Below, in pieces: positions 4,398 to 45,714 of a DNA stretch of 64,000 nt. Positions within the stretch are counted from its first letter, which is position 1. Each line of letters opens with the position of its first letter. The notes beneath the pieces were generated by a model. It made no database searches. It worked only from the letters and a program-made list of their open reading frames with translations, and had not been told where the DNA came from. The translations under genes were made by a program, and so were the position numbers. This stretch comes from Candidatus Omnitrophota bacterium (GTDB lineage: Bacteria; Omnitrophota; Gorgyraeia; Tantalellales; Tantalellaceae): assembly GCA_014728075.1 (NCBI GenBank), contig WJMG01000075.1, positions 4,262 through 68,261 on the forward strand, written 5' to 3'.

Positions 4398-4476
4398 ATA
4401 TCTCCTCCTTTAGGATAAATAAGCCCGTTCCCGGCACTCAAACCCGGACCGGGCCTTAACCCGCCTTGATATCTCA

Positions 4477-32700: not shown

Positions 32701-34311
32701 TTCCCTTATGGGATCTATGGCGGGATTGGTAACCTGGGCGAAAAGCTGCTTGAAATAATTATAGAGGACCTGCGAATGTTTCGAAAGTATCGCGTGAGGC
32801 GTATCGTTCCCCATCGCGCCGATAGGCTCTTTACCTTCCCTGGCCATAGGGACTATTATCTCTTTAAGGTCTTCCCGGGAATACCCGAACGACTTGAGCA
32901 GTGAAGTCACCTCCTCTTTCTCTTCTTTGGCCGGCCCACCGGAGGACAGGTCATCCATTTCAACAAGATTGTCCCTGACCCACCTGCCGTAATCCTGCCG
33001 CCCGCAGACATCTTTCTTTACATCTTTGTCCTCTATTATCTTTCCGGCTTCGGTATCGATAAAAAATATCTTTCCGGGTTCGAGCCTGCCCGACTTGAGT
33101 ATGTCGGCGGGATCGATATCCAGCACTCCCACCTCGGAAGCCATTACGACGGTATCGTCCTTGGTAACTATGTACCGGGCGGGTCTAAGACCGTTACGGT
33201 CGAGCACGGCGCCTATCCTGGTGCCGTCCGTAGCGGCGATGGCCGCCGGTCCGTCCCATGGTTCCATGAAACAGGAATGGAATTTATAAAAATCCCTTAG
33301 CTCCTTATCCATGAGATCATTATGCTCCCAGGCGCCGGGAACGAGCATCAGCATGACATGGGGCAGGGACCTTCCTGAAAGCTCCAGGAGCTCGAAAACA
33401 TTATCTATCGTGGCGGAATCACTGCCGCCTTCGACTATAACGGGTTTTATCTTCTCCAGGTCCCGTCCGAAATCGCCGCTTTCGAGAAGCCCTTCGCGGG
33501 CGCGCATCCAGTTTATGTTGCCCCTTAAAGTGTTTATCTCTCCGTTATGGGCAAGAAAGCGGAAAGGCTGGGCGAGGTCCCATGTAGGGAAAGTGTTCGT
33601 ACTGTACCGGGAGTGCACAAGAGCCAGGGACGAAACGACATCTTTCTCCCTGAGGTCGACAAAGTAATCTTTTACCTGATGCGGCATCAGCAGACCCTTG
33701 TAGCTCAATGTCCTGGAAGAAAGATTGGTTATGTAGAAAAAGGACTTCTGTTCAATAGTCGAAGCCTTAACCTGTTTTTCAGCTATCCTCCTGATAACAT
33801 AAAGCTTCCGTTCGAAGTCCATTATCGCGTTTACCGACCCGCCCGCTTTTATGATAGGCTGTTTGATGACCGGCTGGGTCTCGAGGGCGCCTTTGCCTAT
33901 GATCGAATCGTCCACGGGAACTTCTCTCCAGCCCAGAAATTCCTGTCCTTCTTCCTTTACGGCCTTTTCCAGGGTTTTCTCGCAAAAATCCCTGTCTTCC
34001 GGCTCTTCCGGAAGGAAAACAAGCCCGGTCCCGTATTCCCCCGCCGCAGGAAGCTCTATTCCCAGCGTTTTGACGGACCTTCGAAGAAAAGCGTCCGGCA
34101 TCTGTATAAGTATCCCCGCGCCGTCACCGGTCTCGGGATCAGCGCCTACCGCCCCTCTGTGGCTCATGTGCTCAAGGACATTTATGGCTTTGCTGATTAT
34201 GTCGTAAGACCTCTCTCCTTTTACATTGCAGACAAACCCTACACCGCAGCTGTCGTGCTCGAAAAAAGGGTCGTAAAGGCCCTGTTTCGGAGGTAAATGC
34301 TTAAATCCCAT
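29779..34311 (-). CDS. gltB: glutamate synthase large subunit
   Basis: 1510 aa; N-terminal Ntn amidotransferase (FEHDSCGVGF), FMN and 3Fe-4S domains, C-terminal GXGXG beta-helix. Confidence 0.95.
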   Translation of the reverse strand: MGFKHLPPKQGLYDPFFEHDSCGVGFVCNVKGERSYDIISKAINVLEHMSHRGAVGADPETGDGAGILIQMPDAFLRRSVKTLGIELPAAGEYGTGLVFLPEEPEDRDFCEKTLEKAVKEEGQEFLGWREVPVDDSIIGKGALETQPVIKQPIIKAGGSVNAIMDFERKLYVIRRIAEKQVKASTIEQKSFFYITNLSSRTLSYKGLLMPHQVKDYFVDLREKDVVSSLALVHSRYSTNTFPTWDLAQPFRFLAHNGEINTLRGNINWMRAREGLLESGDFGRDLEKIKPVIVEGGSDSATIDNVFELLELSGRSLPHVMLMLVPGAWEHNDLMDKELRDFYKFHSCFMEPWDGPAAIAATDGTRIGAVLDRNGLRPARYIVTKDDTVVMASEVGVLDIDPADILKSGRLEPGKIFFIDTEAGKIIEDKDVKKDVCGRQDYGRWVRDNLVEMDDLSSGGPAKEEKEEVTSLLKSFGYSREDLKEIIVPMAREGKEPIGAMGNDTPHAILSKHSQVLYNYFKQLFAQVTNPAIDPIREEVVMSLESYVGSQKNILGETPEHAHKLRIKEPVLMDHELEKIRGIDEKGFRTATISTLFNASDKKAFKQALDRVCLDAEKAIEDGYSFVILSDRGVDREHAALPALLAAGAVHQFLVKKALRSRIGLIVESGEPREVHHFALLFGYGADCVNPYLALKAVSELVGEKRLRSDAGTAHLNYRKAVNKGIMKILSKMGISTLKSYRGAQIFEAIGLGEEVVDRCFTGTPSRIGGADIDTIARETLSRHKEAFPEVETLKTDNLVTGGIYQWKKDGEKHLWNPESIAALQDAVWNSDYRKYRSFSEMINDQSDTPVTLRSLLKFRKNTPVPLEEVEPEGEIVKRFATGAMSFGSISRGAHESLAIAMNRLGGRSNTGEGGEDPARFVPMPNGDSARSAIKQVASGRFGVTTNYMVNSDELQIKIAQGAKPGEGGQLPGHKVSAVIARTRYTTPGVTLISPPPHHDIYSIEDLAQLIFDLKNTNPGARISVKLVSEVGVGTIAAGVAKGHADMILISGADGGTGASPKSSIRHAGLPWELGLSETHQTLVLNDLRSRVRLQTDGQMRTGRDVAVAAMLGAEEYGFCTAALITVGCVMLRHCNLNNCSVGVATQDDLLQKRFRGRPEYVETYMRFVIRELREIMAELGIRKLDELIGRTDLLEVNRDIIPEKARGLDLSRILYKPQVAPEVGTRCERAQDHCIDSVLDRELISLAEKAVKNEEKVEIELPIRNVNRTTGAMLSGAVCMEHGERGLPEGTIHCRFRGEAGQSFGAWLAKGITFELEGLANDYVGKGMSGGKIVIYPGKRSDYDPGQNIIIGNTTFYGAISGEAYIKGVAGERFCIRNSGVYAVAEGVGDHGCEYMTGGRAVIIGPTGRNFGAGMSGGIAYIYDEDGSFPAKCNMDMVDLEEPEEGDRETIHNLLHNHLNYTGSEKAKKILDNMHEAIGRFVKVMPIEYKRVLEARKMEEKLGLAETFDG

Positions 34312-34328
34312 CGGTCACCTTTTCCGGT

Positions 34329-34550
34329 TCAAATTCTGTACTTTTTGACATCTATCCCGAGCTTCCGTATCTTCAGCCTGAGAGTATTCCTGTTTATTCC
34401 CAGAAGCTTCGCGGCGATCGACTGGTTGCCGAAAGCCCTTTTCAGGGCTTTTTCAATAAGCAGTTTTTCAGTACCGCTGATCACCCTGTCGTAAACGCAT
34501 CCCGTATCCGCCGCCGAAAAAACCTCATCGATATTAATATCTTCCCTCAT
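34329..34550 (-). CDS. Fis-family helix-turn-helix DNA-binding protein
   Basis: 73 aa; C-terminal HTH_8 (EKALKRAFGNQSIAAKLLGINRNTLRLKIRKLGI); first gene of the unit containing gltB. Confidence 0.6.
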   Translation of the reverse strand: MREDINIDEVFSAADTGCVYDRVISGTEKLLIEKALKRAFGNQSIAAKLLGINRNTLRLKIRKLGIDVKKYRI

Positions 34551-34628
34551 AACGCTCTCCTGGAATTAGGTTAGTGTTGAACGGTATTTCCAGGACTCCG
34601 CGAACAGGTCTTTTGTATTTCGCCCTTG

Positions 34629-34669
34629 AAATAAAAAAAGCCTTACCAAGCGTCGGAGCTTGATAAGGC
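34629..34669 (-). terminator. rho-independent terminator inside the leader of the fis-like/gltB unit
   Basis: Minus-sense GCCUUAUCAAGC-uccgac-GCUUGGUAAGGC (12-bp stem) followed by UUUUUUUAUUU. Confidence 0.6.
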
Positions 34670-34787
34670 GTCTTTGCCTTAAAGCGAAGTCTTACAGACC
34701 TTTATGAAGCCTAAAAACTCATCGATGAGCATCGGAACTCCCGGGACCGCCCGGTCCCCGGTTCGGTACAGCTTCACTCAGGTGCCC

Positions 34788-34816
34788 ATTCTACCATTCA
34801 TAAATACATATGTCAA
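34788..34816 (-). promoter_or_regulatory. sigma70-like promoter TTGACA - 17 nt - TAGAAT
   Basis: Consensus -35, 17-nt spacer, 5/6 -10; fires towards the terminator and the fis-like gene. Confidence 0.5.
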
Positions 34817-34851
34817 TATGTAAATCCGGCGGTTTTTGAGCCTTTTTAGGC

Positions 34852-35571
34852 TTATAATCGCTCATTTTCCGACCGGTATCGCATTATGTTCTCGAAGTTA
34901 CGGCATATCCTATAGGCCTCATTTTCAAGAGTTTTTCTGAAGTTTTTCTCATCTTCAAGTAATTTTCCGGCCTTTTCAGAGTATTCCTTTCCCTCTTCGG
35001 AATATTCCTTTATCCACCTTTTCACCATCTCCGAAGTAACCTCGAAATGAAATTGAAGCCCGTAGGCATGATCTCCGATCCGGAAGGCCTGGTTGGGACA
35101 GAGCTCTCCGGCAGCGAGGGCCTCCCCATCAGGCGGAATATCGAAAGTATCCTCGTGCCACTGAAAGACCCTCATCACCTCTCCCATTCCGCTGAAAAGA
35201 GGGTCTTCTCTGCCCTTTTCGGTCAATTCCGCGGTATAATAGCCTATCTCGGGTACAGGAGACCTTTTTACGGCCGCGCCGAAAGTTTTTGCCAGCAGCT
35301 GTGCCCCGAGACAGATGCCCATAAACGGTATTCCGCGGTCCGCGGCTTTTCGGATGAACTTACACTCTTCGGACAGGTAAGGGTATTTTCCCTCTTCGTA
35401 AACATTCATGGGCCCTCCGAGGACGATAATACCGTCAGTGCCTTCGGGACTTTGCGGCAGCCTGTCTCCCTGATAAAGGTCTATTGTCACGGAGGGATGA
35501 TCCGCGTTATCGAAAAAGTCCCCTATAAGCCCCGGGCCCTCAATGGAAATGTTCTTTATGTAAATTATCAT
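34852..35571 (-). CDS. class I glutamine amidotransferase-like protein
   Basis: 239 aa; catalytic-triad context GICLGAQLL and HED. Confidence 0.8.
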   Translation of the reverse strand: MIIYIKNISIEGPGLIGDFFDNADHPSVTIDLYQGDRLPQSPEGTDGIIVLGGPMNVYEEGKYPYLSEECKFIRKAADRGIPFMGICLGAQLLAKTFGAAVKRSPVPEIGYYTAELTEKGREDPLFSGMGEVMRVFQWHEDTFDIPPDGEALAAGELCPNQAFRIGDHAYGLQFHFEVTSEMVKRWIKEYSEEGKEYSEKAGKLLEDEKNFRKTLENEAYRICRNFENIMRYRSENERL

Positions 35572-35672
35572 ATGGCCCTTCTAACGGCCGCAGGCCACTG
35601 ACAGCAGACAACATATTTTCATACGCGGTCCTTTGTCGGTGGCCCGTTGCCGGCGGATCTTCTTCTATATTA

Positions 35673-36014
35673 CTACCCTATCGCCTCGTGCCCGGTCTCT
35701 CCGGTCCGTATGCGGATGCAATCGGCGAGATCCAGGACGAGTATCTTCCCGTCCCCTATATTTCCGGTCCTCGCTCCTTTTACGATAGCGTCTATAGTAG
35801 GCTGGACGAACTCCTTGTTCACCGCTATCTCAAGCCTTATCTTCTTGAGAAGGTTCACTTCGTGGACCACGCCCCTGTATGTCTCGGTAAAACCTTTCTG
35901 CTGGCCGCAACCGAGCGCGTTAGTAACTGTCATCTTATGTATGTCCGCCTCAAAAAGCGCTTTTTTGACATCGGGCAGCTTGTGAGGCTGTATCATCGCT
36001 ACTATCAACTTCAT
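35673..36014 (-). CDS. glnK: nitrogen regulatory protein P-II
   Basis: 113 aa from [10 protein letters not shown]; T-loop (GFTETYRG) and B-loop (TGNIGDGKI); AAGGAG Shine-Dalgarno sequence. Confidence 0.9.
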
Positions 36015-36091
36015 GGCGATCACTCCTTGTTCAGTTATTAGTTAAGAGCCTCCGGACCGGACCGGTTCTTTCTCCGGACCCGTACTCTGAA

Positions 36092-37438
36092 CTACTGCGT
36101 TGTAAAGATCTGGAAACCCGAATACGCCTCCATGCCGTGTTCGGTTATGTCCAGGCCTTTGAGTTCTTCTTCCCTCGAGACCCTGAGCCCGATAACCGCG
36201 TTGATGGTCTTGAAAACAACTGTCATGGCTACCAGGACGAACGCTACTACGGCAAAAGCGCCGAGCGCCTGTATGCCGAGCTGTTCAAATCCCCCTCCGT
36301 GCAATAGGCCGTCACGGGCAAGCCCCAGAGCTTTACGCCCGAATATACCTACGGCGAGGGTCCCCCAGATACCGTTGACCATATGCACGGGGACAGCGCC
36401 TACCGGATCGTCTATCTGGACCCTGTCAAGGAACAAGGTCGCGGCTACTACCAGTATACCCCCGATGGCCCCTATCAGAAGAGCTTCGGCAGGTATGACA
36501 TACGCGCATGGCGCCGTTATGGCCACAAGGCCGGCCAGAGCGCCGTTCATGGTCATGGTCAGATCGGGCTTTCCGCACTTTTTCCAGGCGTAGAACATTG
36601 CCACGAGAGCTCCGCTGACGGCCGAAAGGTTCGTGTTAACGGCAACCTTGGCTATAAGGCTTCCGTCACCGACAGCAAGCGTGGATCCCGGGTTGAACCC
36701 GAACCAGGCAAACCACAGTATAAGGGCTCCCAGCGAGGCCAGGGCCATGGAATGCCCTTCTATGGCATTGGCCGAACCGTCCTTATTGTATTTACCTATT
36801 CTCGGGCCCAGCACCATGGTCCCTACCAGCGCGGCCGTGCCGCCGACGGCGTGTACCACCGCGGATCCCGCGAAATCGCCGAAACCCAGCCCGGCGAGCC
36901 AGCCGCCGCCCCAGACCCAGTGGCCTACGAAGGGGTACACGGCAGCCGATATAATGAAAGAATACATGAGATACGCTTTGAACTTCATCCTTCCCGCGAT
37001 GCCTCCCGCGACTATGGTCGCGGCCGCTCCGCAAAATACGGCGTGGAAGAACCAGGTAGCCTCAAGCGGAAGCGCGCCTTCGTGTGCGGCGTTTATGAGC
37101 ATCCATCCTTCCCAGCCCATGAAACCGTTTCCCTTGCCGAACATTATGGCGTACCCGAACATGAAAAATCCCATTGAAGCCATGCAGAAGTCCAGAAAGT
37201 TGTTCATCAGGACATTACATACATTCTTCGTCCTCAACAGACCCGCTTCAAGCATACCGAAACCGGCCTGCATGATAAAGACCATAAAGGCCGCTATCAT
37301 CACCCAAAGGGTATCGATACCGGTAGTAGTGGCATACTTTTCCGTTCCCTCGGCCAGGGCGGGCCCGGCGAGAAAGCCGAACGCGAAAGCGGCAGAGGCG
37401 GCAGCGAATACCGTTCTTCTTAACCATCCCCTCTTCAT
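36092..37438 (-). CDS. amtB: ammonium transporter Amt
   Basis: 448 aa, signal peptide plus 11 TM helices, Amt signature. Confidence 0.95.
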   Translation of the reverse strand: MKRGWLRRTVFAAASAAFAFGFLAGPALAEGTEKYATTTGIDTLWVMIAAFMVFIMQAGFGMLEAGLLRTKNVCNVLMNNFLDFCMASMGFFMFGYAIMFGKGNGFMGWEGWMLINAAHEGALPLEATWFFHAVFCGAAATIVAGGIAGRMKFKAYLMYSFIISAAVYPFVGHWVWGGGWLAGLGFGDFAGSAVVHAVGGTAALVGTMVLGPRIGKYNKDGSANAIEGHSMALASLGALILWFAWFGFNPGSTLAVGDGSLIAKVAVNTNLSAVSGALVAMFYAWKKCGKPDLTMTMNGALAGLVAITAPCAYVIPAEALLIGAIGGILVVAATLFLDRVQIDDPVGAVPVHMVNGIWGTLAVGIFGRKALGLARDGLLHGGGFEQLGIQALGAFAVVAFVLVAMTVVFKTINAVIGLRVSREEELKGLDITEHGMEAYSGFQIFTTQ

Positions 37439-37459
37439 CTCTCTCCTCCTTTTCGGTTA

Positions 37460-37503
37460 AAAAAGATAAGGCGCCTTCCGGCCTACACGGCCAAAAGACG
37501 CCT
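37460..37503 (-). terminator. terminator-like hairpin with U-tract in the amtB(1) leader
   Basis: Minus-sense GGCG..GGCCGUGUAGGCC..CGCC followed by UUAUCUUUUUU, about 40 nt upstream of the amtB ATG. Confidence 0.4.
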
Positions 37504-37531
37504 TCGTCGTTACCATTACCCGTAATATCGC

Positions 37532-37582
37532 GCACATCACTGTGCTTGATAATACAAGTAAACCGGGGATGGTTATGGTAAC
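37532..37582 (-). promoter_or_regulatory. conserved nitrogen-operon upstream element, copy 1
   Basis: About 50 nt shared with copy 2 at 40648..40702: GTTACC-N9-CCGGNTTTACTTGTATTATC(A/G)AGCAC-N6-GTGC. Confidence 0.5.
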
Positions 37583-37659
37583 TTTTATTTAAGGTTTGTT
37601 CGTAAAGGAGACCGGAACAGCCCGGAACTATACCCCGTTCTCTTTATCCGATACTCTTT

Positions 37660-38001
37660 TTAACCTATCGCCTCACTTCCCGTCTCCCCTGTCCTTATCC
37701 TTACACATTCCGCGAGATCCATAACAAAGATCTTCCCGTCTCCTATATTGCCCGTCCTCGCCCCTTTTACGATAGCGTCTATAGTGGGCTGGACGAAGTC
37801 CTTGTTAACCGCTATCTCCAGCCTTATCTTCTTGAGAAGGTTCACTTCGTGGACCACGCCCCTGTATGTCTCGGTAAAACCCTTCTGCTGGCCGCAGCCG
37901 AGGGCGTTGGTGACCGTCATCTTGAAGACCTCGGCCTCGTACAAAGCCTTCTTAACATCGGGCAGTTTGTGCGGCTGTATCATCGCTACTATAAGTTTCA
38001 T
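37660..38001 (-). CDS. glnK: nitrogen regulatory protein P-II (second copy)
   Basis: 113 aa from MKLIVAMIQ; AAGGAGGG Shine-Dalgarno sequence. Confidence 0.9.
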
Positions 38002-38013
38002 GACCACCCTCCT

Positions 38014-39360
38014 TTATTTGGATTCTGTCGCGAATATCTGGAACCCGGCATAGGACTCCATACCGTGTTCGCCTATATCCAGCCCTTTAAGCTGTTCCTC
38101 ATCGGAAGCCCTCAGGCCCATGGTCAGCTTAATAATACCGAAAAGCGCGAAGGCGGCCCCGAAAGTCCACAGAAAAACCGAACCCACACCTACGGCCTGC
38201 GTTATTAACTGGGACAGACCTCCACCGAAGAAAAGGCCGTTGGCTCCCCCGTAGGCCTCCTGGGCGAACAGCCCGACGGCAAGGGTGCCCCAGGCTCCGC
38301 ATACGCCGTGTACGGAGACCGCGCCGACGGGATCGTCGATCCTGAGGACCTTGTCGATGAACTCGACGCTGAAAACTACCAGTATCCCGGCTACCGCACC
38401 TATGATGATCGCGCTGGAGGGAGATACATTGGCGCAACCCGCGGTTATTCCGACAAGCCCGGCCAGCGCGCCGTTAAGCGACATACTGACATCCGGCTTA
38501 CCGAACTGCAGCCAGACCGTTATCATGGCCGCCACCGCGCCCGCGGCCGCCGCAAGATTGGTAGTAACCGCTATTACCGCTATGCTCAGGTCGGTACCGG
38601 CCGTCGTACTGCCGGCGTTGAAACCGAACCATCCGAACCACAATATGAACACACCGAGCGCGGCAAGAGGTATGTTATGGCCCTGTATGGCGTTGGATGA
38701 CCCGTCACTGTTATACTTACCGAGTCTTGGCCCCAGAAGCAGGGCTCCGGCGAGAGCCGCCCATCCGCCTACCGAATGCACTACGGTGGACCCGGCAAAA
38801 TCGATCATTCCTTTCGCCGAAAGCCATCCGCCTCCCCATATCCAGTGCCCCACTACCGGATATATAACAGCGGTAAGAAAAGCGCTGTAGGCCAGATAGG
38901 AAGAGAACTTGGTCCTTTCCGCCATCGCTCCCGAAACGATAGTGGCCGCGGTCGCCGCGAACACCGCCTGGAAGATCCAGAAAGTGAACTGCCAGAGACC
39001 GTCGGCGGTCGACGGGTCGGCACTGCTTAAAAAGAAACCGCTCTTTCCGAAAAGCCCGAAAGCGCTCGCCCCGAACATTATCGCGAAACCCACGGCCCAG
39101 TAAGCCAGTGAACCTACGGCGAAATCCATAAGGTTCTTCATCATTATGTTACACGCGTTCTTGGCCCTGGTAAACCCGGTTTCCACCATCGCGAAACCGG
39201 CCTGCATGAAAAACACCAGTATCGCGGCGAGAAGGGTCCACACGGTGTCGATAGCCACCGCGTTGGAAGCCGCTGTGGCCCCGTCATCCCCCCACGCCCG
39301 CGGCACCAGACCAAGGACCAGAGCCGGCATTATCCTGAGTATTTTACTTAACATCTTCAT
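38014..39360 (-). CDS. amtB: ammonium transporter Amt (second copy)
   Basis: 448 aa; paralogue of 36092..37438. Confidence 0.95.
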   Translation of the reverse strand: MKMLSKILRIMPALVLGLVPRAWGDDGATAASNAVAIDTVWTLLAAILVFFMQAGFAMVETGFTRAKNACNIMMKNLMDFAVGSLAYWAVGFAIMFGASAFGLFGKSGFFLSSADPSTADGLWQFTFWIFQAVFAATAATIVSGAMAERTKFSSYLAYSAFLTAVIYPVVGHWIWGGGWLSAKGMIDFAGSTVVHSVGGWAALAGALLLGPRLGKYNSDGSSNAIQGHNIPLAALGVFILWFGWFGFNAGSTTAGTDLSIAVIAVTTNLAAAAGAVAAMITVWLQFGKPDVSMSLNGALAGLVGITAGCANVSPSSAIIIGAVAGILVVFSVEFIDKVLRIDDPVGAVSVHGVCGAWGTLAVGLFAQEAYGGANGLFFGGGLSQLITQAVGVGSVFLWTFGAAFALFGIIKLTMGLRASDEEQLKGLDIGEHGMESYAGFQIFATESK

Positions 39361-39394
39361 GATATCCTCCTTCCCGTATCCTAATGGTACAGGA

Positions 39395-40222
39395 TCAATA
39401 AGAGAATCCTAATGTCACCCCGCCGAAGAACTCGTTCTCCTGCGCGTCGTTATAGGTATCCCTGTCCAGTATTACCGAATAGGAAACATTGGGCACCAGA
39501 TAAAAATGGTTGAAGAACGGTATTGTAACATCAAGCGACAAAAGCATATCGCTCCATCCGTGTTTATCCGTCCACTGTTCGTAATTGTAGCCGAAGGCAG
39601 CGCCTATATCGGCCGTGATATCGTTCCCCAGGTCAAAAGTATGTCCGCCGCCGAACTGGAGATATGAACCGTGGCCGGCTTCGACATCCCAGTACCAGGT
39701 AAAGAAAGGCTGGAGGAGAATGTCGTAAGAAGTTCCCACAAAGACCTCATGGGAAGTGGCTCCCTTCTCATCCAGGTCCATGTTGGGAAAAGTGTAAAAG
39801 GTATATCCCATCGAAATGCTCCACGGGTCCAGCGCCTCCGCGTCTTCAACGCCCATGTAACCCATCATCTCTCCGACGGAAAACTCGTAACTGGCTGTAT
39901 AATCAAGTTCAGTAAGCTCCTGGTACGACCCGTTCGCCTTGTCGCGGCTCATGCTGTAGTTCCCCCAGAGATCCAGAGTGAACCCGTATTTTGACAGGTT
40001 GACATCGAACTGCATTACCGGGGCGTCGACCAGGTTCTGCCCTCTCCAGATGTACTTGCTCATGAAAGCGGTGCTTGCGTCAAGATCGGGCATGCCCTCC
40101 GGCTTCGCGGGCAGATAATCCTCCTCCATGTCAAGTACGGCATGAGCGCTCGCGCACATTAAGGTAATCCCCGCAAAAAGCGTGAACGCCCTCAAAAAGA
40201 TCTTTTTCCTGAAACTGCACAT
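39395..40222 (-). CDS. putative outer-membrane porin (beta-barrel)
   Basis: Start at MCSFRKK with AAGGAGGG Shine-Dalgarno; signal peptide; alternating aromatic/hydrophilic strands; ends GFSY. Confidence 0.5.
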   Translation of the reverse strand: MCSFRKKIFLRAFTLFAGITLMCASAHAVLDMEEDYLPAKPEGMPDLDASTAFMSKYIWRGQNLVDAPVMQFDVNLSKYGFTLDLWGNYSMSRDKANGSYQELTELDYTASYEFSVGEMMGYMGVEDAEALDPWSISMGYTFYTFPNMDLDEKGATSHEVFVGTSYDILLQPFFTWYWDVEAGHGSYLQFGGGHTFDLGNDITADIGAAFGYNYEQWTDKHGWSDMLLSLDVTIPFFNHFYLVPNVSYSVILDRDTYNDAQENEFFGGVTLGFSY

Positions 40223-40518
40223 GATACCCTCCTTCTTTTCGTTTTCGAGAGACTTTCTCCCCCTGATATGTAACATTCTTCCACCGACATGACCTCCAGG
40301 TCAAGCATTTTGATCCCTTTTCCGAACATGCGCTCGAAGTCAGATGTGATCCTCGGCAACTCCTCTCCCGTAACATATGCTTCTATTCTGACATCGAACC
40401 ATATTTCGGGGATTTCACCGAAGTCGAGGACCAGCATCCTTTTCACTCCGGCCCCGGAAAGTCTTGAAAGGACCGGGTCCAGCTCGGAGCGTTCGCACCT
40501 TAACTCGATCTTCTTCAT
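40192..40518 (-). CDS. small PII-like (GlnB-fold-like) protein, function unknown
   Basis: 108 aa from MKKIELRCERSELDPVLSRLSGAGVKRMLVLDFGE (AGGAGGGGAAGG Shine-Dalgarno sequence); the N-terminal pattern mirrors GlnB. The 3' end overlaps the porin start by 31 nt. Confidence 0.4.
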   Translation of the reverse strand: MKKIELRCERSELDPVLSRLSGAGVKRMLVLDFGEIPEIWFDVRIEAYVTGEELPRITSDFERMFGKGIKMLDLEVMSVEECYISGGESLSKTKRRRVSCAVSGKRSF

Positions 40519-40532
40519 CCTTCCCCTCCTTT

Positions 40533-40580
40533 CTTTAAAAAAAAGCGCCCTGCCCCTTCCCGAATCTCCGGAAAGAGAGG
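40533..40580 (-). terminator. hairpin plus U8 tract in the leader of the PII-like/porin/amtB operon
   Basis: Minus-sense CUCUUUCC-ggagauucg-GGAAGGGG ... GGGCGCUUUUUUUU, about 20 nt upstream of the Shine-Dalgarno sequence. Confidence 0.35.
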
Positions 40581-40647
40581 ACGCCCTTGTCAAAAAAGAC
40601 ATTCCTCCCGGAACGCCTTTGTCTGATAACATCTTTGTGTTCTTTTA

Positions 40648-40702
40648 CCGTGCACTGCTACGTGCTCGATAATACAAGTAAATCCGGATACTTTCCGGTA
40701 AC
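40648..40702 (-). promoter_or_regulatory. conserved nitrogen-operon upstream element, copy 2
   Basis: See copy 1; contains CCGGATTTACTTGTATTATCGAGCACGTAGCAGTGCACGG. Confidence 0.5.
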
Positions 40703-41223
40703 TACATAAGCTCTTCCTTGAGCGCCGAGCATTTTTCCCTTATGTTCTTAGTTATCTTCCCCACCATTACATGCGAAACCCCTATTTTATCGCCTATCTC
40801 CCTGGTGGTGTAACCTTCCAACCTGTAGAAAAACACATTCTTTTCCCTTTCCGTGAACATTGACTCCGTTTCGTCCAGAAGAAGGTATATCTCCAGGGTC
40901 CCCGTATCCTTTGTATAACTATCGGAGACCAGGGTATCCTCGATGGTGATATCCTCCTCGATAGGGGTATACATGCTGATGGAATTCCTGTCCACGCTCT
41001 TGCATATTTTCCTTATATAGTTCTTCAGGAAGAAATATGACCCCTGAAGTATATAGCTGTCGGTCTTTCCTTCCAGCTCGCCGTTCTCGAACCTTAGCCA
41101 GAGGTCAAGAAGGGCTTCCTGAAAGAAATCGTCCTCGTCGCAGTAAGAATATCTGTTCCTTACCTTGTACGAAATAGCTCTTATCCTGGGCGAATATTTT
41201 GCGAGAACATCTTCGTAGCTCAT
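40702..41223 (-). CDS. RNA polymerase sigma factor, sigma-70 family (ECF-sized)
   Basis: 173 aa from MSYEDVL; region 2 (FFQEALLDLWLRF) and region 4 HTH (REKNVFFYRLEGYTTREIGDKIGVSHVMV). Confidence 0.7.
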   Translation of the reverse strand: MSYEDVLAKYSPRIRAISYKVRNRYSYCDEDDFFQEALLDLWLRFENGELEGKTDSYILQGSYFFLKNYIRKICKSVDRNSISMYTPIEEDITIEDTLVSDSYTKDTGTLEIYLLLDETESMFTEREKNVFFYRLEGYTTREIGDKIGVSHVMVGKITKNIREKCSALKEELM

Positions 41224-41254
41224 CCTGACCACCTCCTTTTTTGGCTTTATAAAG

Positions 41255-41300
41255 AAAAAGCCCTTTCGGGTCCTTTTCAGGACCCGAAAGGGCTTCGATG
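41255..41300 (-). terminator. rho-independent terminator after the GAF-ANTAR gene
   Basis: Minus-sense GAAGCCCUUUCGGGUCC-ugaaaa-GGACCCGAAAGGGCUU followed by UUUUCUUUAU. Confidence 0.75.
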
Positions 41301-41440
41301 CCTTAACCCGGCCGCGGGCTTTATGAACTAAAAAAGAGGCTTCCATTCCGGTAAGCCTCTTCGCGTTTTGTACATCCGTGTACGACTTTTATTATACTAC
41401 TTTCCCGGATCAAAGTCAACAACTATCGTCTTTCACAAGG

Positions 41441-42148
41441 TCACTTTTTACCGCCCGATATCTCGAAGGACAGTATAACGGCCTCTGCCACTTCCTTCAT
41501 GGAAATACGCTTGTTCATGCTGGACTTCCTCAAGAGCTTGTATGCCTCGTCCTCGGAAAGGTCCTGCTGCCTCATCAGAATACCCTTTGCTTTCTCGACC
41601 TTTTTCCTGGTCTCGAGCTCTTCCTGGATCACTTTGGTCTTTACCATCAGTTCTGTATTCTCTATCGCTACAGCCGCCTGGTTGGCGACGGCGCTCAGAA
41701 GTTCAATATCACTTTTGGTAAAATCGTGTTTCTCGACCGTGTAAACATTTATAACGCCTATGACCTTTTCCTTGACCATCATAGGCACGCTTAACATCGA
41801 AATAAGGCCTTCTTTCTTCGCGAGCTGCTTTTCCTTATACCTGTCGTCCTGGGAAACATCCTTTATAACAAGCGGCTCGGCTTCTTCGGCTACCAGGCCC
41901 ACTATACCCTCCCCCACCTTTATGGCCCTTTCTTTCAGATATTCCTGGCTCATTGCCTGCGTTGCCCTTATCCTGAGTTCCCCGGCTTCTTCGTCGAGAA
42001 GCCAGAGAGCGCATATTTCGGCCCCCATGACACCCGCGGTGAGATTAACGATCAGCTTAAGTATATCCTCGAGGTAAAGGTCGCTGGTTATAGCGTGGCT
42101 TATCCTGGTCAAGGTCGAAAGATATTCTTTTTCAGAAGATTTCGGCAT
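41441..42148 (-). CDS. GAF-ANTAR RNA-binding antitermination regulator
   Basis: 235 aa; N-terminal GAF domain, C-terminal ANTAR motif (AKGILMRQQDLSEDEAYKLLRKSSMNKRISMKEVAEAVI). Confidence 0.8.
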   Translation of the reverse strand: MPKSSEKEYLSTLTRISHAITSDLYLEDILKLIVNLTAGVMGAEICALWLLDEEAGELRIRATQAMSQEYLKERAIKVGEGIVGLVAEEAEPLVIKDVSQDDRYKEKQLAKKEGLISMLSVPMMVKEKVIGVINVYTVEKHDFTKSDIELLSAVANQAAVAIENTELMVKTKVIQEELETRKKVEKAKGILMRQQDLSEDEAYKLLRKSSMNKRISMKEVAEAVILSFEISGGKK

Positions 42149-42264
42149 GATTTTTCCCCGGTTTAAATATTTATCGCTGCCCTGTCCTCGGGCATTCTCG
42201 AAACATATCCCCCGCTTTCACCCGGGCTTCTTCGCCGCGGAAGTTCCCGGGACATTCCGAGTTT

Positions 42265-42297
42265 ATGAGTTACGGGCGCAAAGCGCCCGTAACTCAT
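42265..42297. repeat. 33-nt perfect palindrome ATGAGTTACGGGCGC-AAA-GCGCCCGTAACTCAT
   Basis: 15-bp perfect inverted repeat with a 3-nt centre, 9 nt past the glnN stop codon and upstream of the GAF-ANTAR gene. Confidence 0.8.
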
Positions 42298-42306
42298 GTG
42301 CTCATT

Positions 42307-44400
42307 TTACATCATGAAGAGCATTTCCGCGTAAGACGGGAGCGGCCAGATCTCGTCCGGAAGAAGTTCTTCCAGACGGTCGACGGCTACTCTGAGCTCG
42401 TTCATAGCGTCTATCTTTTCGGAAGCCTTGCCTCCAAGAGCGGCTTCGAGTTCCTTTATACCCTTGAGCATCTTCTCGGTCTCGCCGCCTACTTCCTTGA
42501 GAAGGTCCATAGTACCGTCCGACTTGCACCCGCATGTTTTCATGTCATCTATGGTCCCCGCGAGCGAAGACTGGTACTCCAGGGCTATGGGAACTATCAT
42601 TGTCCTGGCCATTTTGAGCGCGACACTGGCTTCGATAGTAATGGTCTCTTCATACTGCTCCTCGTAGATATCGTGCCTTGAAGCCAGCTCCTCGGGTGTG
42701 AGGACTTTATGTTTCTTGAACATCTCGATCACTTTAGGATCTTTTGTAGCTTCGAGAGCCGCTTCGGTGTTCCTCAGGTTCGGAAGCCCTCTCTTTTCGG
42801 CTTCCTTGTGCCAGTCTTCGGTATAATTATCACCGTTGAAGAGTATTCTTTTATGTTTTTTGACTATACCCTGAAGCACGACCTGTAGAGCTTCGTTAAA
42901 ATCCTTACCGGATTTCACATCAGACTCGAGTTCCGTGCATATCTCATCGAGAGCATCCGCGACTATAGTGTTAAGCACGATGTTAGGCCCGGCGCAGCTC
43001 TGGTTGGATCCCGGCGCCCGGAACTCGAACTTATTCCCCGTAAAGGCGAAGGGGCTCGTCCTGTTCCTGTCAGTCACATCTTTGGGAAGCTGCGGCAGGG
43101 AATCCACCCCGAGTTCAAGGAGATCCGCCTGCTTTGAGCTTTTTGCGCCACCCTTTTCTATCTGGTCGATTATATCCGTAAGCTGGTCTCCCAGAAATAT
43201 GGACAGTATCGCCGGCGGAGCCTCGTTAGCGCCCAGCCTGTGGTCGTTACCGGCGGTAGCTACCGAAGCTCTAAGCATCGGCGCGTTAGTATCGATCGCC
43301 TTCATGAGCGCGCATATCATGGTAAGGAACTTGGCGTTCTCGTGCGGATTATCCCCCGGGGAAAGCCAGTTCTTGCCGTCCGGACCGACCACCGACCAGT
43401 TGTTATGCTTACCCGATCCATTGACCCCGGCGTATGGTTTTTCGTGAAGAAGGCATACAAAACCGTGCTTTTCCGCCACCTTTTTCAGCGTCTCCATACA
43501 TATCATGTTGTGATCTATCGAAAGGTTCTGCTCCTCAAAAACCGGAGCTATCTCGAACTGCGCCGGACAGACCTCGTTGTGACGGGTCTTTGCCGGTATA
43601 CCCAGCCTCCAGAGCTCCCTGTCCAGATCGTCCATAAAGGACATGACCCTTGTCCTGATAGCTCCGAAGTAATGATCGTCCATCTGCTGGTGTTTAGCCG
43701 GGGCGCTGCCGAAAAGGGTCCTTCCCGTCTGTATCAGGTCAAGCCTGGCTTCGTAAAACGACCTGTCGACAAGAAAATATTCCTGTTCGGGGCCGAGGGT
43801 GGCGTAAGCTCTCTTGTCTTTAGTGTCTATACCGAAAAGCCCAGCCAGGCGGCATACCTGTTTTGAGAGAGCCGCGACCGACCTTAAAAGAGGTGTCTTC
43901 TTGTCAAGCGCTACCCCTGTATAGGAATAGAAAGCCGTCGGGATGCACAGGGTCGCCCCTATTTCCCCTTTCTTTATGAAAGCGGGCGAAGTCGGGTCCC
44001 ATGCGGTATACCCTCTGGCTTCGAAGGTAGCCCTGAGCCCTCCGGACGGAAAACTTGAAGCGTCCGGCTCGCCTTTAATAAGCTCATTGCCGGAAAATTT
44101 CATAATAACGCCGCCTTCCTGGTCCGGCTCTATGAAAGAATCGTGTTTTTCGGCCGTCGCCCCCGTGAGCGGCTGGAACCAGTGGGTAAAATGGGTCGCG
44201 CCCTTAGCGACCGCCCAGGTCTTCATGGCGTCGGCGACCTCGTCGGCTATGGAAGGGTCTATCGTCTTGCCTTCCTTTATTGTCGCGATAAGCGAACCAT
44301 ACGCTTTTTCCGAAAGGTAATTGCGCATGTTCTTGATGCTGAAAACATTCTCGCCGTAAATATCCGCTACCGACCTTACTCCCATTTCTTCCTTACACAT
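42307..44400 (-). CDS. glnN: glutamine synthetase type III
   Basis: About 697 aa from MCKEEMGV (AAGGAGG Shine-Dalgarno sequence); length and conserved segments typical of GSIII (GlnN). Confidence 0.9.
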   Translation of the reverse strand: MCKEEMGVRSVADIYGENVFSIKNMRNYLSEKAYGSLIATIKEGKTIDPSIADEVADAMKTWAVAKGATHFTHWFQPLTGATAEKHDSFIEPDQEGGVIMKFSGNELIKGEPDASSFPSGGLRATFEARGYTAWDPTSPAFIKKGEIGATLCIPTAFYSYTGVALDKKTPLLRSVAALSKQVCRLAGLFGIDTKDKRAYATLGPEQEYFLVDRSFYEARLDLIQTGRTLFGSAPAKHQQMDDHYFGAIRTRVMSFMDDLDRELWRLGIPAKTRHNEVCPAQFEIAPVFEEQNLSIDHNMICMETLKKVAEKHGFVCLLHEKPYAGVNGSGKHNNWSVVGPDGKNWLSPGDNPHENAKFLTMICALMKAIDTNAPMLRASVATAGNDHRLGANEAPPAILSIFLGDQLTDIIDQIEKGGAKSSKQADLLELGVDSLPQLPKDVTDRNRTSPFAFTGNKFEFRAPGSNQSCAGPNIVLNTIVADALDEICTELESDVKSGKDFNEALQVVLQGIVKKHKRILFNGDNYTEDWHKEAEKRGLPNLRNTEAALEATKDPKVIEMFKKHKVLTPEELASRHDIYEEQYEETITIEASVALKMARTMIVPIALEYQSSLAGTIDDMKTCGCKSDGTMDLLKEVGGETEKMLKGIKELEAALGGKASEKIDAMNELRVAVDRLEELLPDEIWPLPSYAEMLFMM

Positions 44401-44448
44401 GACTACCTCCTTGGATTGTATGACACACACTAAATTTTACTCTTTTTC

Positions 44449-44584
44449 GCCTGAAAAAGAAAGAACATCCTTTCCGGGCCGCTATAAAAGAAGCCTTAAA
44501 AGGATGTTCTTCCCTGAACTTCCCGTTTATCCCTCACAACAAAGTGGGGGTAAAAAGAAAAGGCACTCCCGTAAAAGGAATGCC
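44449..44584 (-). promoter_or_regulatory. glnN leader with two terminator-like hairpins (candidate attenuator)
   Basis: Hairpin 1 GGCAUUCC-uuuuac-GGGAGUGCC plus UUUUCUUUUU (44551..44584). Hairpin 2 AGAACAUCCUUUU...AAAGGAUGUUCUU plus UCUUUUUC (44449..44510). Confidence 0.5.
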
Positions 44585-44690
44585 TCTTTGCTTTCAAATC
44601 CGCACTGCTTCGTGCAGTTTTTATTTTACCCTATTCCTGAATTTTGTCAACATCTTTTTTTGCCCGCTTTTCCCGCTTCTTCTGCCTGCC

Positions 44691-45392
44691 TTTTGTACCG
44701 GGTTCCGACCCCACTTTGTACCGGGTACGAACATAAAGCTGTAGCTGTCCCCTCAGTTTTTTGAAAGAATTACATCAAAAAAGTTGTATCTAATAGTGAG
44801 GGGGGATATTTATACGATCGTGTAAAAATCAACACAACCAACAGGAGGTGCTCAAAATGTCCAGAACGAAAAGAATACTTATCGACAACAGTTATTACCA
44901 CATAATAAACAGGGGAAATCGAAAAAAAGAGATCTTCAAACATGGATCAGATTACAGGCATTTTCTCTCTCTACTTAAAAAGGCGAAGAAAAAACATAAA
45001 GTAAAGATAAACGCTTACTGCTTAATGCCGAACCATATACATATCATCGCTTATATCCGGGAAGCAAAGACCATCTCCAGCTTAATGCACTATGTTTCCC
45101 GAAATTACGCCTCGTATTTTAATTCCAGATATGAAAAAGTAGGCCATCTTTGGCAAAGCAGGTTCAAGAGTTATCCTCTTCTCACGGAAGAATATTTGAT
45201 ACATGTGGCCAATTATATTGAAATAAACCCGGTAAAAGCAAAGATAGTGGATGACCCATCAAAATACACCTGGAGCAGTTACAATGAAAGATGCCTTATG
45301 CAAAAACAGTATCTTCTGGATCCTATTACGGTATAGGGACAGGTACAAGTTCAGATCGGTACCCGGTACAAAGCTGACACGGTACCCGGTAC
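44691..45392 (+). mobile_element. REP-RAYT-REP unit (REP-associated tyrosine transposase flanked by inverted REP sequences)
   Basis: IS200-like Y1 transposase ORF bracketed by inverted copies of a ~45-bp element GGGGACAG(G/C)TAC..-N8-GTACCCGGTACAAAG. Confidence 0.7.
44857..45336 (+). CDS. REP-associated tyrosine transposase (IS200/IS605 TnpA-like, Y1 HUH)
   Basis: 159 aa from ATG 44857 (AGGAGG Shine-Dalgarno sequence); HUH motif NHIHII and a downstream Tyr-containing helix (YVSRNYASYFN). Confidence 0.8.
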   Translation: MSRTKRILIDNSYYHIINRGNRKKEIFKHGSDYRHFLSLLKKAKKKHKVKINAYCLMPNHIHIIAYIREAKTISSLMHYVSRNYASYFNSRYEKVGHLWQSRFKSYPLLTEEYLIHVANYIEINPVKAKIVDDPSKYTWSSYNERCLMQKQYLLDPITV

Positions 45393-45399
45393 TGTTTTG

Positions 45400-45714
45400 T
45401 TACTTCCGTATCATCACCAGCACCATCTTAACCCTTTCCGGCGCACTCACGGAATGAGGGACATCCGCCGGCATTATTATGGACTCGCCCGCCGATAGCC
45501 CGTGCTTCTCACCGGCTATGGTGACTTCCGCGCGGCCGTCCACCACATTGACAAGAGCATCGAAAGGCGCGGTGTGCTCACTGAGCCCCTGATCCTTGTC
45601 AAAAGCGAAAACCGTAACGGTACTTTCCTTGTCTATTATCGCCCTGCTGACCACGGACCCTTCCTGGTAATCTATAAGGTCGCCGTATTTGAACACTTTA
45701 GCTTTTATATCCAT
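45400..45714 (-). CDS. cupin domain protein
   Basis: 104 aa from MDIKAKV (AAGGAG Shine-Dalgarno sequence); conserved-barrel cupin pattern (G...H..P.D). Confidence 0.65.
   Translation of the reverse strand: MDIKAKVFKYGDLIDYQEGSVVSRAIIDKESTVTVFAFDKDQGLSEHTAPFDALVNVVDGRAEVTIAGEKHGLSAGESIIMPADVPHSVSAPERVKMVLVMIRK

Follow-up and report, generated by a model that had tools for sequence, protein, structure and literature searches.

A small, degenerate PII-like gene heading a predicted porin-amt-glnK operon in a Candidatus Omnitrophica genome

The window analysed here, a 64-kb stretch of DNA from a MAG of an uncultured Candidatus Omnitrophica bacterium, encodes two ammonium transporter modules preceded by a porin-like gene and a small open reading frame (ORF). 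All elements described in an earlier note on this DNA were found where it had placed them, every one on the minus strand. Read along that strand, the region comprises:

41441-42148, minus strand: candidate GAF-ANTAR RNA-binding antiterminator (Pfam GAF 3e-25, ANTAR 2e-21)
40702-41223, minus strand: ECF-type sigma factor, 173 aa, starting MSYEDV (TIGR02937)
40673-40702, minus strand: promoter-like motif GTTACC-N15-TTACTTGTA of operon 1
40519-40672, minus strand: leader of operon 1 (fold z = -4.35; aligned with the leader of operon 2)
40192-40518, minus strand: small ORF, 108 aa, starting MKKIELR, first cistron of operon 1 (NCBI GF408_06410, identical protein)
39395-40222, minus strand: porin-like gene (ORF), 275 aa, starting MCSFRKK, with AGGAGG 7 nt upstream
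38014-39360, minus strand: Amt1 ammonium transporter, 448 aa (Pfam PF00909)
37660-38001, minus strand: GlnK1, canonical PII, 113 aa (PF00543)
37553-37582, minus strand: second copy of the promoter-like motif GTTACC-N15-TTACTTGTA, before amt2
37439-37552, minus strand: leader of operon 2 (fold z = -6.41)
36092-37438, minus strand: Amt2 ammonium transporter, 448 aa (Pfam PF00909)
35673-36014, minus strand: GlnK2, canonical PII, 113 aa (PF00543)

Amt1 matched PF00909 with an E-value of 4e-135 (451 bits) and TIGR00836 with 469 bits, Amt2 the same models with 6e-123 (411 bits) and 429 bits (TIGR00836 cut-off 343), and GlnK1 and GlnK2 each matched the Pfam P-II family (E 2e-27, 96 bits). GlnK1 carries H51 in place of Y51, and GlnK2 is 91% identical to it in amino acids and 84% in nucleotides. 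The description of the modules as tandem duplicated amtB-glnK holds in so far as there are two pairs, of 448, 113, 448 and 113 aa, but not as a recent duplication, since the two Amt proteins are only 54% identical. Amt1 orthologues elsewhere share 76-88% identity, and values are about 80% for each of Amt1 and Amt2 against other genomes. Judged by these comparisons, the modules are an old, conserved and ordinary paralogue pair, each module having a promoter and a leader of its own.

The porin-like product has a signal-peptide-like N-terminus ending AHA|V, a C-terminal GFSY and 79 homologues, mostly from Omnitrophota. The family, taken as 31 aligned members, showed no Pfam and no PDB match, and PF09694 was found in just two distant homologues. 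We regard the 275-aa product as a candidate outer-membrane beta-barrel protein of porin-like type. An amt gene follows the porin gene in 49 of 74 loci, and the gene order porin-amt-glnK is widespread.

The operon 1 promoter motif begins on the final base of the sigma gene's stop codon. Of 87 sigma genes, 53 have GTTACC-N15-T[TA]ACTTGTA downstream, and 48 of these 53 show a spacing of exactly 15. The sigma factor scored 56 bits against TIGR02937 (cut-off 42.9), and, since motif and sigma gene co-occur, this ECF-type factor is the likely reader of GTTACC-N15-TTACTTGTA promoters. In related lineages this sigma gene is often followed immediately by a PII gene.

The leader of operon 1 contains a hexaloop hairpin (P1, 40652-40665), then two intrinsic terminators (about 40590-40626 and 40541-40588) and finally the ribosome binding site (RBS); in both terminators the 5′ arm has an alternative fold, a small GAC-AnnGGC-GTY hexaloop hairpin. 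In the operon 2 leader, P1 is GCAC-AGUGAU-GUGC (37532-37545), and a GAC-GAAGGC-GUC hairpin overlaps the 5′ arm of the terminator (37468-37504). Hexaloop hairpins of the A1/G4 type occurred 118 times in 68 leaders, versus 25.5 +/- 4.9 in shuffled sequences. The ANTAR RNA motif was reportedly described by Ramesh et al. in 2012 as two hexaloop hairpins (A1/G4), the second overlapping the 5′ arm of a terminator. The components of an ANTAR system, an ANTAR-domain protein and two-hairpin leaders, are both present here at the sequence level, and most Omnitrophota loci keep the GAF-ANTAR gene upstream of their porin/amt operon. We infer that both operons are under ECF-sigma-type promoters and ANTAR-type antiterminator leaders. 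ANTAR control of amtB/glnK has a precedent in Geobacter (PMC2995071). As the operon 1 genes share one upstream promoter/leader and either overlap or lie 12-34 nt apart, co-transcription of the small ORF with porin and amt1, which the earlier note had claimed, and with glnK1 is very probable.

The small ORF has an AGGAGG RBS upstream of its MKK start, and it ends, as had been described, 31 nt into the porin ORF (stop codon at 40192-40194). A longer reading of 146 aa from an ATG at 40632 was rejected; it crosses the leader terminators and finds no support from RBS or orthologues. Codon usage over the 83 codons outside the overlap gave a log-likelihood of +0.33 per codon, where true-gene windows reach 0.41 +/- 0.08 and off-frame windows -0.55 +/- 0.16. 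Two syntenic orthologues (P0081 and P0082, in loci L002 and L006) are intact ORFs; the window protein is 27% identical to that of L002 (pairwise E 2e-5). By these sequence criteria the 108-aa ORF is a real protein-coding gene.

Conventional searches did not place its product in any family. It matched no Pfam family at E <= 1, PF00543 included, and no NCBIfam model; P0081 and P0082 matched no Pfam family even at E <= 10, and a single-sequence search with the window protein retrieved only itself. Profile methods, in turn, pointed to PII. A profile of the three sequences gave three matches among 177,635 PDB sequences, all of them PII, full-length and in register, at E-values (0.018-0.058) that are marginal on their own. 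Aligned by hhalign with a GlnK profile of 58 sequences (57 from the loci plus the GlnK1 of the window), the small-ORF profile reached a probability of 94%, P 1.4e-7 and a score of 44.9, whereas the best score and P in 150 column shuffles were 18.9 and 0.013. When the family HMM was run against all ORFs of 163 loci and the window, the matches at E below about 1.5 were PII genes, every one. The AlphaFold2 (AF2) model, for which the three-sequence alignment was the only input, is beta-alpha-beta-beta-alpha-beta (E2-8, H10-21, E25-32, E43-49, H51-66, E72-78), with residues 1-80 as a folded core (pLDDT about 66-82; mean for the model 63), and residues 81-108 as a basic, disordered tail encoded across the RBS and start of the porin gene. 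From the single sequence AF2 gave a poor model (pLDDT 43). The top 50 Foldseek matches were PII or PII-like throughout. Profile and structure prediction against PII folds, which the earlier note had proposed, thus recovered a PII-type fold and support its PII-like assignment; on sequence profiles and model together, the small-ORF product belongs at the fold level to the PII superfamily, of which it is a strongly degenerate representative.

The predicted core resembles canonical PII proteins (GlnB/GlnK, PF00543) in its order of secondary structure, and the alignment keeps its register between the MKKIE N-terminus and the 'LEE' turn of beta4; both belong to a length class of about 110 aa and are encoded in an amt operon. 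Unlike them, the family finds no PF00543 match even at E 10, and its gene precedes the porin gene instead of trailing amt. Furthermore, the window protein is without T-loop, Y51/S49, Q39, K58, R101/R103 and B-loop. The absence of a canonical T-loop, noted earlier, is borne out by a 14-residue gap in both hhalign and MAFFT alignments with GlnK, with no Y51/S49 site and no Q39; in L002 and L006 the region is of unrelated sequence and 7 residues shorter. Neither the B-loop GDGKIF nor the C-terminal RxR was found in the alignment. At the position of TGxxGDGKIF the window protein reads FGKGIKMLDLEV, the aligned segments of the family being FGKGIKMLDLEV, AKKTKDTFNLEI and SQEQEENCIVEI, and the B-loop glycines are entirely missing from the L002 and L006 orthologues. 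Across the family alignment the K58 position is not conserved and R101/R103 are absent. Since T-loop, B-loop, Q39/K58 and RxR are lost, the small-ORF product would no longer be able to sense ATP, ADP or 2-oxoglutarate, nor to plug a transporter as GlnK does.

Other small PII-fold proteins offer partial parallels. The genes of SbtB and CPII occur, like the small ORF, together with a transporter gene, in their case that of the transporter controlled, and both proteins act through a long T-loop and adenine-nucleotide sites that they have kept (10.1101/2023.08.10.552651). Their identity to the small-ORF product is just 14-21%, with no sequence-level match. DUF3240 (PII-NG, PDB 3ce8) and CutA are PII-fold families that likewise lack a T-loop, and differ in showing 5-10% identity, which amounts to no sequence similarity, and no Pfam match. 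The genomic context of PII-NG is metal efflux, unlike the porin-amt operon. For CdAMP_rec/PstA, DUF3240, CutA and SbtB alike, no Pfam match to the small-ORF family was obtained, and the likeness is structural only.

A closer relative was found among PII proteins with a short T-loop that are encoded in Omnitrophota-like metagenomes (L123 2434-2757, L139 4844-5164 and L009 4889-5209). They provided the top non-self match and three of the best four matches of the family HMM (E 7e-6 to 4e-4), and their loop is equal in length to that of the L002 and L006 orthologues. Like the small ORF, their genes come first after a sigma-type promoter and leader, and the proteins share the N-terminus MKKIEC and, in strand beta3, the pattern K(I/V)E(I/F)Y; the L139 layout is identical, namely sigma-promoter-PII′-outer-membrane protein-amt-glnK, where PII′ denotes the small PII-like form. 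They differ in retaining GDGKI and RVRTGER and so have probably remained able to bind nucleotides; both elements are lost from the window protein, which carries an additional loop deletion. In 8 of 63 classified cases the promoter motif is followed first by a PII or a small PII′ gene (five free-standing PII and three small PII′, a permease-PII fusion being left out). HMM ranking and loop length, rather than a resolved phylogeny, suggest that the small ORF most likely descended from the 'leading PII' of sigma-dependent amt operons in related lineages, and the short-T-loop subfamily looks like an intermediate form toward it. A third PII in such a position had been called unusual; a PII heading these operons recurs in related metagenomic lineages, and what is unusual is the degeneracy of this copy alone.

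The small ORF has an evolutionary rate about six times that of its neighbours (dN 0.53 versus 0.09 for porin, amt1 and glnN). Between L002 and L006, pN (0.38) is lower than pS (0.67). A dN/dS of roughly 0.3 and the survival of an uninterrupted ORF behind a strong RBS in three lineages mean that its product is under some selection. The ORF is absent from L001, whose porin is 73% identical, and from L009, L015, L026 and L164-L168. Searches of 5.8e9 clusters and 1.84e9 representatives left a family of three members only, with no further homologue among the representatives.

Our preferred reading, to which we assign a probability of roughly 0.6, is that the small ORF is a genuine but degenerate descendant of a leading PII, placed first in its operon and acting as a ligand-blind accessory or remnant, the function being a guess. 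Operon 1 would then be PII′-porin-amt1-glnK1, with translation of the small ORF coupled to the porin gene through the 31-nt overlap. The operon would probably be transcribed from the promoter read by the adjoining ECF-type sigma factor, and read-through of the two leader terminators would probably depend on the GAF-ANTAR protein encoded upstream. With such a promoter and such read-through, the small-ORF product would be expected only once the cell turns on ammonium uptake. It would be a weakly constrained and dispensable protein, not a new sensor, although it may have kept the ability to bind a PII partner such as Amt1 or GlnK, possibly in mixed trimers. As such it would add no more than a minor variant to the known PII family. 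The label 'remnant' may undersell a real function, and it is conceivable, if quite improbable, that a ligand-blind PII derivative was recruited to a new job in the nitrogen regulon. It could then serve as a decoy subunit, entering mixed trimers with GlnK or blocking the GlnK docking site and so keeping Amt1 open during early derepression, or as a protein partner feeding back on the ECF-type sigma factor or the GAF-ANTAR antiterminator.

The earlier note had considered a new PII-family signal transducer or a porin regulator, which would sense a metabolite and control porin or Amt activity. Membership in the PII superfamily, a leading place in a transporter operon, reminiscent of SbtB, CPII and GlnK with their targets, retention of ORF and RBS in three genomes and some purifying selection are in line with this idea. 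We nevertheless consider it unlikely, because the known ligand-binding and output elements (T-loop, GDGKIF, Q39/K58/R101/R103) are all missing, in L002 and L006 down to the last B-loop glycine, and because the gene evolves very fast, is lost from the closest relatives and has only three members among the clusters and representatives searched. As for the porin, the small-ORF product has no signal peptide, which makes it unlikely to act directly on an outer-membrane protein.

It is also rather unlikely, in our view, that only the act of translation matters, with a former PII cistron opening the porin start or feeding ribosomes to it while its product drifts. The very high dN, a C-terminal tail dictated by the porin RBS, the conserved stop/start overlap (31 nt in the window, 10 nt in L002 and L006) and the dispensability of the ORF in relatives, where the porin gene directly follows the leader, would all suit this explanation. 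However, the porin gene has its own strong AGGAGG RBS, pN is clearly below pS, and a fold-determining hydrophobic pattern still recognisable as PII by profile and structure methods would have been erased by pure drift at saturated dS. A chance resemblance in a spurious ORF, the region being merely 5′ leader or non-coding spacer, could account for the empty Pfam and NCBIfam searches, the single-sequence search that returned only the query and the poor single-sequence model. This reading is strongly disfavoured by the RBS, the codon usage and the intact ORFs of two further genomes, by an hhalign P-value far below the best of the shuffles, and by fold matches that are specific for PII-like proteins.

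The earlier note had described tandem amtB-glnK modules together with a divergent PII-like ORF overlapping a porin gene. All of these genes were present where it had placed them on the minus strand, and Pfam and NCBIfam confirmed two Amt and two PII proteins. In order of transcription the features are:

40518->40192, minus strand: small ORF, 108 aa, transcribed first
40222->39395, minus strand: porin-like gene, 275 aa, second in transcription order
39360->38014, minus strand: Amt1, 448 aa (Pfam and NCBIfam)
38001->37660, minus strand: GlnK1, 113 aa (PII by Pfam and NCBIfam)
between GlnK1 and Amt2, minus strand: gap of 221 nt
37438->36092, minus strand: Amt2, 448 aa (Pfam and NCBIfam)
36014->35673, minus strand: GlnK2, 113 aa (PII by Pfam and NCBIfam)

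The region is a nitrogen-assimilation island, with genes for an ECF-type sigma factor, a GAF-ANTAR protein and a type III glutamine synthetase as upstream neighbours, and genes for a class-I amidotransferase and a Fis-type HTH protein as well as gltB downstream. The small ORF is the leading cistron and runs 31 nt into the porin ORF before its stop codon; an AGGAGG ribosome-binding site (RBS) stands in front of each of the two genes. NCBI lists the identical small protein as GF408_06410 (Candidatus Omnitrophica bacterium).

The small ORF is a gene, with a strong RBS in front of an MKK start. Over the 83 codons outside the porin overlap its frame scores +0.33 per codon for codon usage, compared to 0.41 +/- 0.08 for windows of true genes and -0.55 +/- 0.16 for off-frame windows; its own other frames score -0.42 and -0.45. 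Intact orthologous ORFs of 112 and 109 aa occupy the same slot between sigma gene and porin in two other genomes, L002 (ENA ERZ21831086 contig_20) and L006 (CAYMTI010000030), where they run 10 nt into the porin gene. The proteins from the window and L002 are 27% identical over their full length (pairwise E 2e-5). As saturation of synonymous sites affects all gene pairs, dN/dS can be estimated only roughly, and dN and the comparison of pN with pS alone were used. The latter gave 0.38 versus 0.67 for L002-L006 and 0.50 versus 0.78 for window-L002, and because pN is lower than pS although synonymous sites are saturated, some purifying selection on the product is indicated. Two alternative starts were rejected, namely a 146-aa reading of the small ORF (ATG 40632), which crosses both leader terminators, is without an RBS and has no counterpart in the orthologues, and a porin start at the upstream ATG 40276, which has no RBS and is not where the homologues begin, i.e. 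at the signal peptide.

The small protein has a PII fold and is a member of the PII superfamily. Searches with the single 108-aa sequence retrieved only itself (Pfam, NCBIfam, a word index of 5.8e9 clusters, and phmmer against 1.84e9 representatives), BLASTP against the window's own GlnK gave no significant match, and a single-sequence AF2 model was too poor for use (pLDDT 43). A profile of the three orthologues had exactly three matches at E <= 10 among all PDB sequences, every one of them PII, full-length and in register (E 0.018-0.058). With hhalign, residues 1-84 of the family were aligned onto residues 1-101 of a GlnK alignment of 58 sequences (57 from fetched loci and the window's GlnK1) with a probability of 94%, P 1.4e-7 and a score of 44.9; the best score among 150 column-shuffled alignments was 18.9 (P 0.013), and a reversed alignment gave nothing. 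When all ORFs of 50 aa or longer from the window and 163 loci were scanned with the family HMM, all matches with E < ~1.5 apart from its own three members were PII genes, and the first non-PII ORF followed at E 1.6. AlphaFold with the three-sequence alignment predicted a beta-alpha-beta-beta-alpha-beta core (block-mean pLDDT 66-82 across residues 1-80) with a disordered tail (residues 81-108), and the best 50 Foldseek matches in the PDB were all PII or PII-like proteins (SbtB, CPII, TTHA0516, GlnB/GlnK). Profile and structure matches are thus PII-specific, so that the protein does have the ferredoxin-like PII fold; the ORF is conserved in related loci, and its description as PII-like was borne out. 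It is new within the known PII superfamily, very small and degenerate.

The motifs for sensing and output are absent from the small protein. In PII proteins, the B-loop, Q39, K58 and R101/R103 bind ATP/ADP and Mg-2-oxoglutarate. The B-loop TGxxGDGKIF is replaced in the small proteins by FGKGIKMLDLEV, AKKTKDTFNLEI and SQEQEENCIVEI, and neither Q39 and K58 nor the C-terminal R101/R103 are conserved. The T-loop, the loop that PII proteins insert into AmtB or SbtA (10.1101/2023.08.10.552651), is missing from the window protein, as the earlier note had read it, with a 14-residue gap in the GlnK alignment; the L002 and L006 proteins carry a loop 7 residues shorter than the canonical one and unrelated in sequence. 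The positions that never vary between the three orthologues lie in the core (M1, K2, K3, E5, L20, G24, V25, E46, Y48, E75, E80 and E81), and the basic C-terminal tail is encoded by the RBS and start of the porin in a different frame.

The small ORF is also fast-evolving and patchily distributed. Only three family members are known from the 5.8e9 clusters and 1.84e9 representatives searched, all of them from uncultured Omnitrophota, and a search with the three-member profile added none. The ORF is absent in L001, the locus with the porin closest to that of the window (73% identity), where the leader runs directly into the porin, in the other sigma-carrying loci (L009, L015, L026, L165/166), in all loci without the sigma gene and in four further porin relatives inspected (L164-L168). 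Between L002 and L006 its dN is 0.53, compared to 0.09 for porin, amt1 and glnN, 0.16 for the ANTAR gene and 0.24 for the sigma gene.

The window contains exactly two copies of the 21-nt sequence TTTACTTGTATTATCRAGCAC, one ahead of the small ORF and one ahead of amt2, where chance predicts none. This sequence belongs to a bipartite motif, GTTACC-N15-T[TA]ACTTGTA (in the window GTTACC-N15-TTACTTGTA), which was found after 53 of the 87 sigma genes of the fetched loci, its two parts being exactly 15 nt apart in 48 of these 53 (loci with the motif: window, L001, L002, L006, L009, L015, L030, L084-L166), and was not found in Omnitrophota loci without the sigma gene. The motif is probably the cognate promoter of an ECF-type sigma factor dedicated to a nitrogen regulon. 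Each copy is followed by a hexaloop hairpin (e.g. GCAC-AGUGAU-GUGC), one or two strong intrinsic terminators and an RBS, and the 5' arm of the terminator can alternatively fold as a small GAC-AnnGGC-GUC hexaloop hairpin. The motif copies, leaders and associated regulatory gene are:

40673-40702, minus strand: bipartite motif just downstream of the sigma gene
37553-37582, minus strand: bipartite motif before the second amt operon
40519-40672, minus strand: leader with hexaloop-terminator design
37439-37552, minus strand: leader with hexaloop-terminator design
41236-41385, minus strand: leader of the sigma gene, hexaloop-terminator design
44431-44580, minus strand: leader of the glutamine synthetase gene, hexaloop-terminator design
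41441-42148, minus strand: GAF-ANTAR gene

Fold z-scores of the first two leaders listed were -4.35 and -6.41, and 68 leaders contained 118 A1/G4 hexaloop hairpins versus 25.5 +/- 4.9 in shuffles. An Rfam search over 34000-45500 gave no known RNA family, only chance-level matches. The ANTAR antiterminator RNA motif was reportedly defined by Ramesh et al. in 2012 as two hexaloop hairpins with A1/G4, and, judged from sequence, the leaders are of this design. The sigma gene is preceded by a near-consensus TTGACT-17-TATAAT promoter, and because its own leader has the ANTAR design, a feed-forward cascade from ANTAR to sigma to the amt operons is suggested. Most loci have a GAF-ANTAR gene upstream, and in Geobacter the amtB and glnK leaders are documented to be under ANTAR control (PMC2995071). 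Since motif and leader stand before both the small ORF and amt2, two transcription units are predicted, PII'-porin-amt1-glnK1 (PII' being the small ORF; gaps of -31, 34 and 12 nt) and amt2-glnK2.

Through the sigma homologue 80 metagenomic loci were collected, and genome loci were included when counting the first genes after the motif. Scanning metagenomes with the sigma alignment yielded paralogues at 40-48% identity alone, without further small-ORF members, but brought to light the leading-PII pattern and the promoter motif. The first gene after the motif was:

amt: 11 cases
porin of the window porin's family: 10 cases
glutamine synthetase (matching the window's glnN, mostly at 24-31% identity): 6 cases
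PII: 6 cases, one of them an amino-acid-permease-PII fusion
small PII': 3 cases
sigma gene itself: 3 cases
unclassified 'other': 24 cases, many with a signal peptide and from a second outer-membrane family

These counts show that PII at the head of sigma-linked operons is recurrent, and a third PII gene in such an operon is therefore less unusual than had been claimed. Two long ORFs (L131 1523-3400 and L148 3333-5327) carry a multi-pass amino-acid-permease-like domain fused to a C-terminal canonical PII domain, with another PII gene next and the same promoter motif above.

A distinct short-T-loop PII subfamily supplies the best non-self match of the small-ORF HMM and three of the first four (E 7e-6 to 4e-4). 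Its members are:

L123 2434-2757: short-T-loop PII
L139 4844-5164: short-T-loop PII
L009 4889-5209: short-T-loop PII

These proteins have an MKKIEC start, a beta3 strand K-I/V-E-I-Y and a T-loop without Y51 and shortened by 7 residues (GFGxQxxRxDSFLFVHKTKIEIY), they retain an intact GDGKI B-loop and RVRTGER, and their genes come first after the sigma-type promoter or are placed after glnK. Their loop length is that of the L002/L006 small proteins, and the L139 locus resembles the window in its order of sigma gene, promoter/leader, short-T-loop PII, outer-membrane protein (of another family), amt and glnK. From the HMM ranking and the indel pattern, not a resolved tree, we infer a decay series that may lead from canonical PII over the short-T-loop leading PII and the L002/L006 form to the window form.

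Our preferred reading, to which we give a probability of roughly 0.6, is that the small protein is a weakly constrained accessory or remnant, ligand-blind and perhaps still docking on a PII partner. It would be made only once the sigma/ANTAR system opens the operon, would be unable to sense adenylates or 2-oxoglutarate, and could not plug Amt via a T-loop. The overlap with the porin start would also suit a cistron that merely couples translation and whose product is irrelevant; with the purifying selection seen on the product, we regard this as rather unlikely. A functional new signal transducer or porin regulator, as put forward in the earlier note, would agree with the PII fold and the place in front of the porin; the sensing and output motifs are lost, we found no evidence for either role, and both are unlikely. 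The empty single-sequence searches might speak for a spurious ORF, which is highly improbable next to the codon usage and the two intact orthologues.

The small protein shows what extent of PII decay is compatible with retention of a gene that is predicted to be expressed, and an apparent series from canonical GlnK through short-T-loop PII and loop-changed, B-loop-less forms to a T-loop-less form becomes visible. Should binding to Amt or GlnK have been retained, the protein would serve as a naturally occurring 'ligand-blind' PII with which docking can be told apart from sensing. Its practical value is modest, with three known members in uncultured Omnitrophota only. For understanding how nitrogen is controlled in this candidate phylum, the proposed regulatory design is probably more useful: a dedicated ECF-type sigma promoter with ANTAR-gated leaders, conserved in dozens of loci.

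The amt-glnK pairs and their porin linkage are ordinary for the clade. Two pairs of 448 and 113 aa each are indeed present in tandem, whereas Amt1 and Amt2 are only 54% identical at the protein level and each have orthologues at 76-88% identity in other genomes, so the modules are an old paralogue pair. The two-module layout also occurs in L002, L015 and L031 and, minus one glnK, in L003/5, L016, L018 and L022. GlnK1 (37660-38001) and GlnK2 (35673-36014) are 91% identical in protein, 84% in DNA and 63% at third codon positions. Their DNA identity of 84% to each other compares to at most 78% to the copies in L002, L015 and L031, the three other genomes with two modules. In those three, copies within a genome are 75-77% identical, roughly the same as the best match between genomes. 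Gene conversion between the glnK paralogues is thus suggested, at least for the window. In the GlnKs of the window and these three loci, H51 replaces the Y51 uridylylation site and a Cys is found at position 36, while Q39, Y46, R47 and K58 are retained; GlnD-type modification of these GlnKs seems unlikely.

The porin-like family (39395-40222; L001-L083) had no Pfam or PDB match. An amt gene, or glnK-amt, directly follows in 49 of 74 genome loci, and porin-amt loci span Omnitrophota, Planctomycetota (including Kuenenia), Acidobacteriota and Verrucomicrobiota. The family, which has no curated model, is probably an ammonium-related outer-membrane channel. In other sigma-dependent amt operons the 'porin' slot is taken by a second, unrelated signal-peptide family with the motif AT(A/P)(S/T)THIWAPSTD and an aromatic last residue, encoded by the first ORF after the promoter motif:

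L139 5178-5933; also L104, L105, L110, L141, L144, L155 and L157: second 'porin'-slot family

Between the glutamine synthetase and GAF-ANTAR genes of the window, a perfect 16-bp palindromic hairpin (42264-42298) looks like a terminator for either strand. In the otherwise syntenic L002, GAF-ANTAR is called as two ORFs, GAF (4090-4515) and ANTAR (4538-4792), which reflects either a frameshift/pseudogene or an assembly error.
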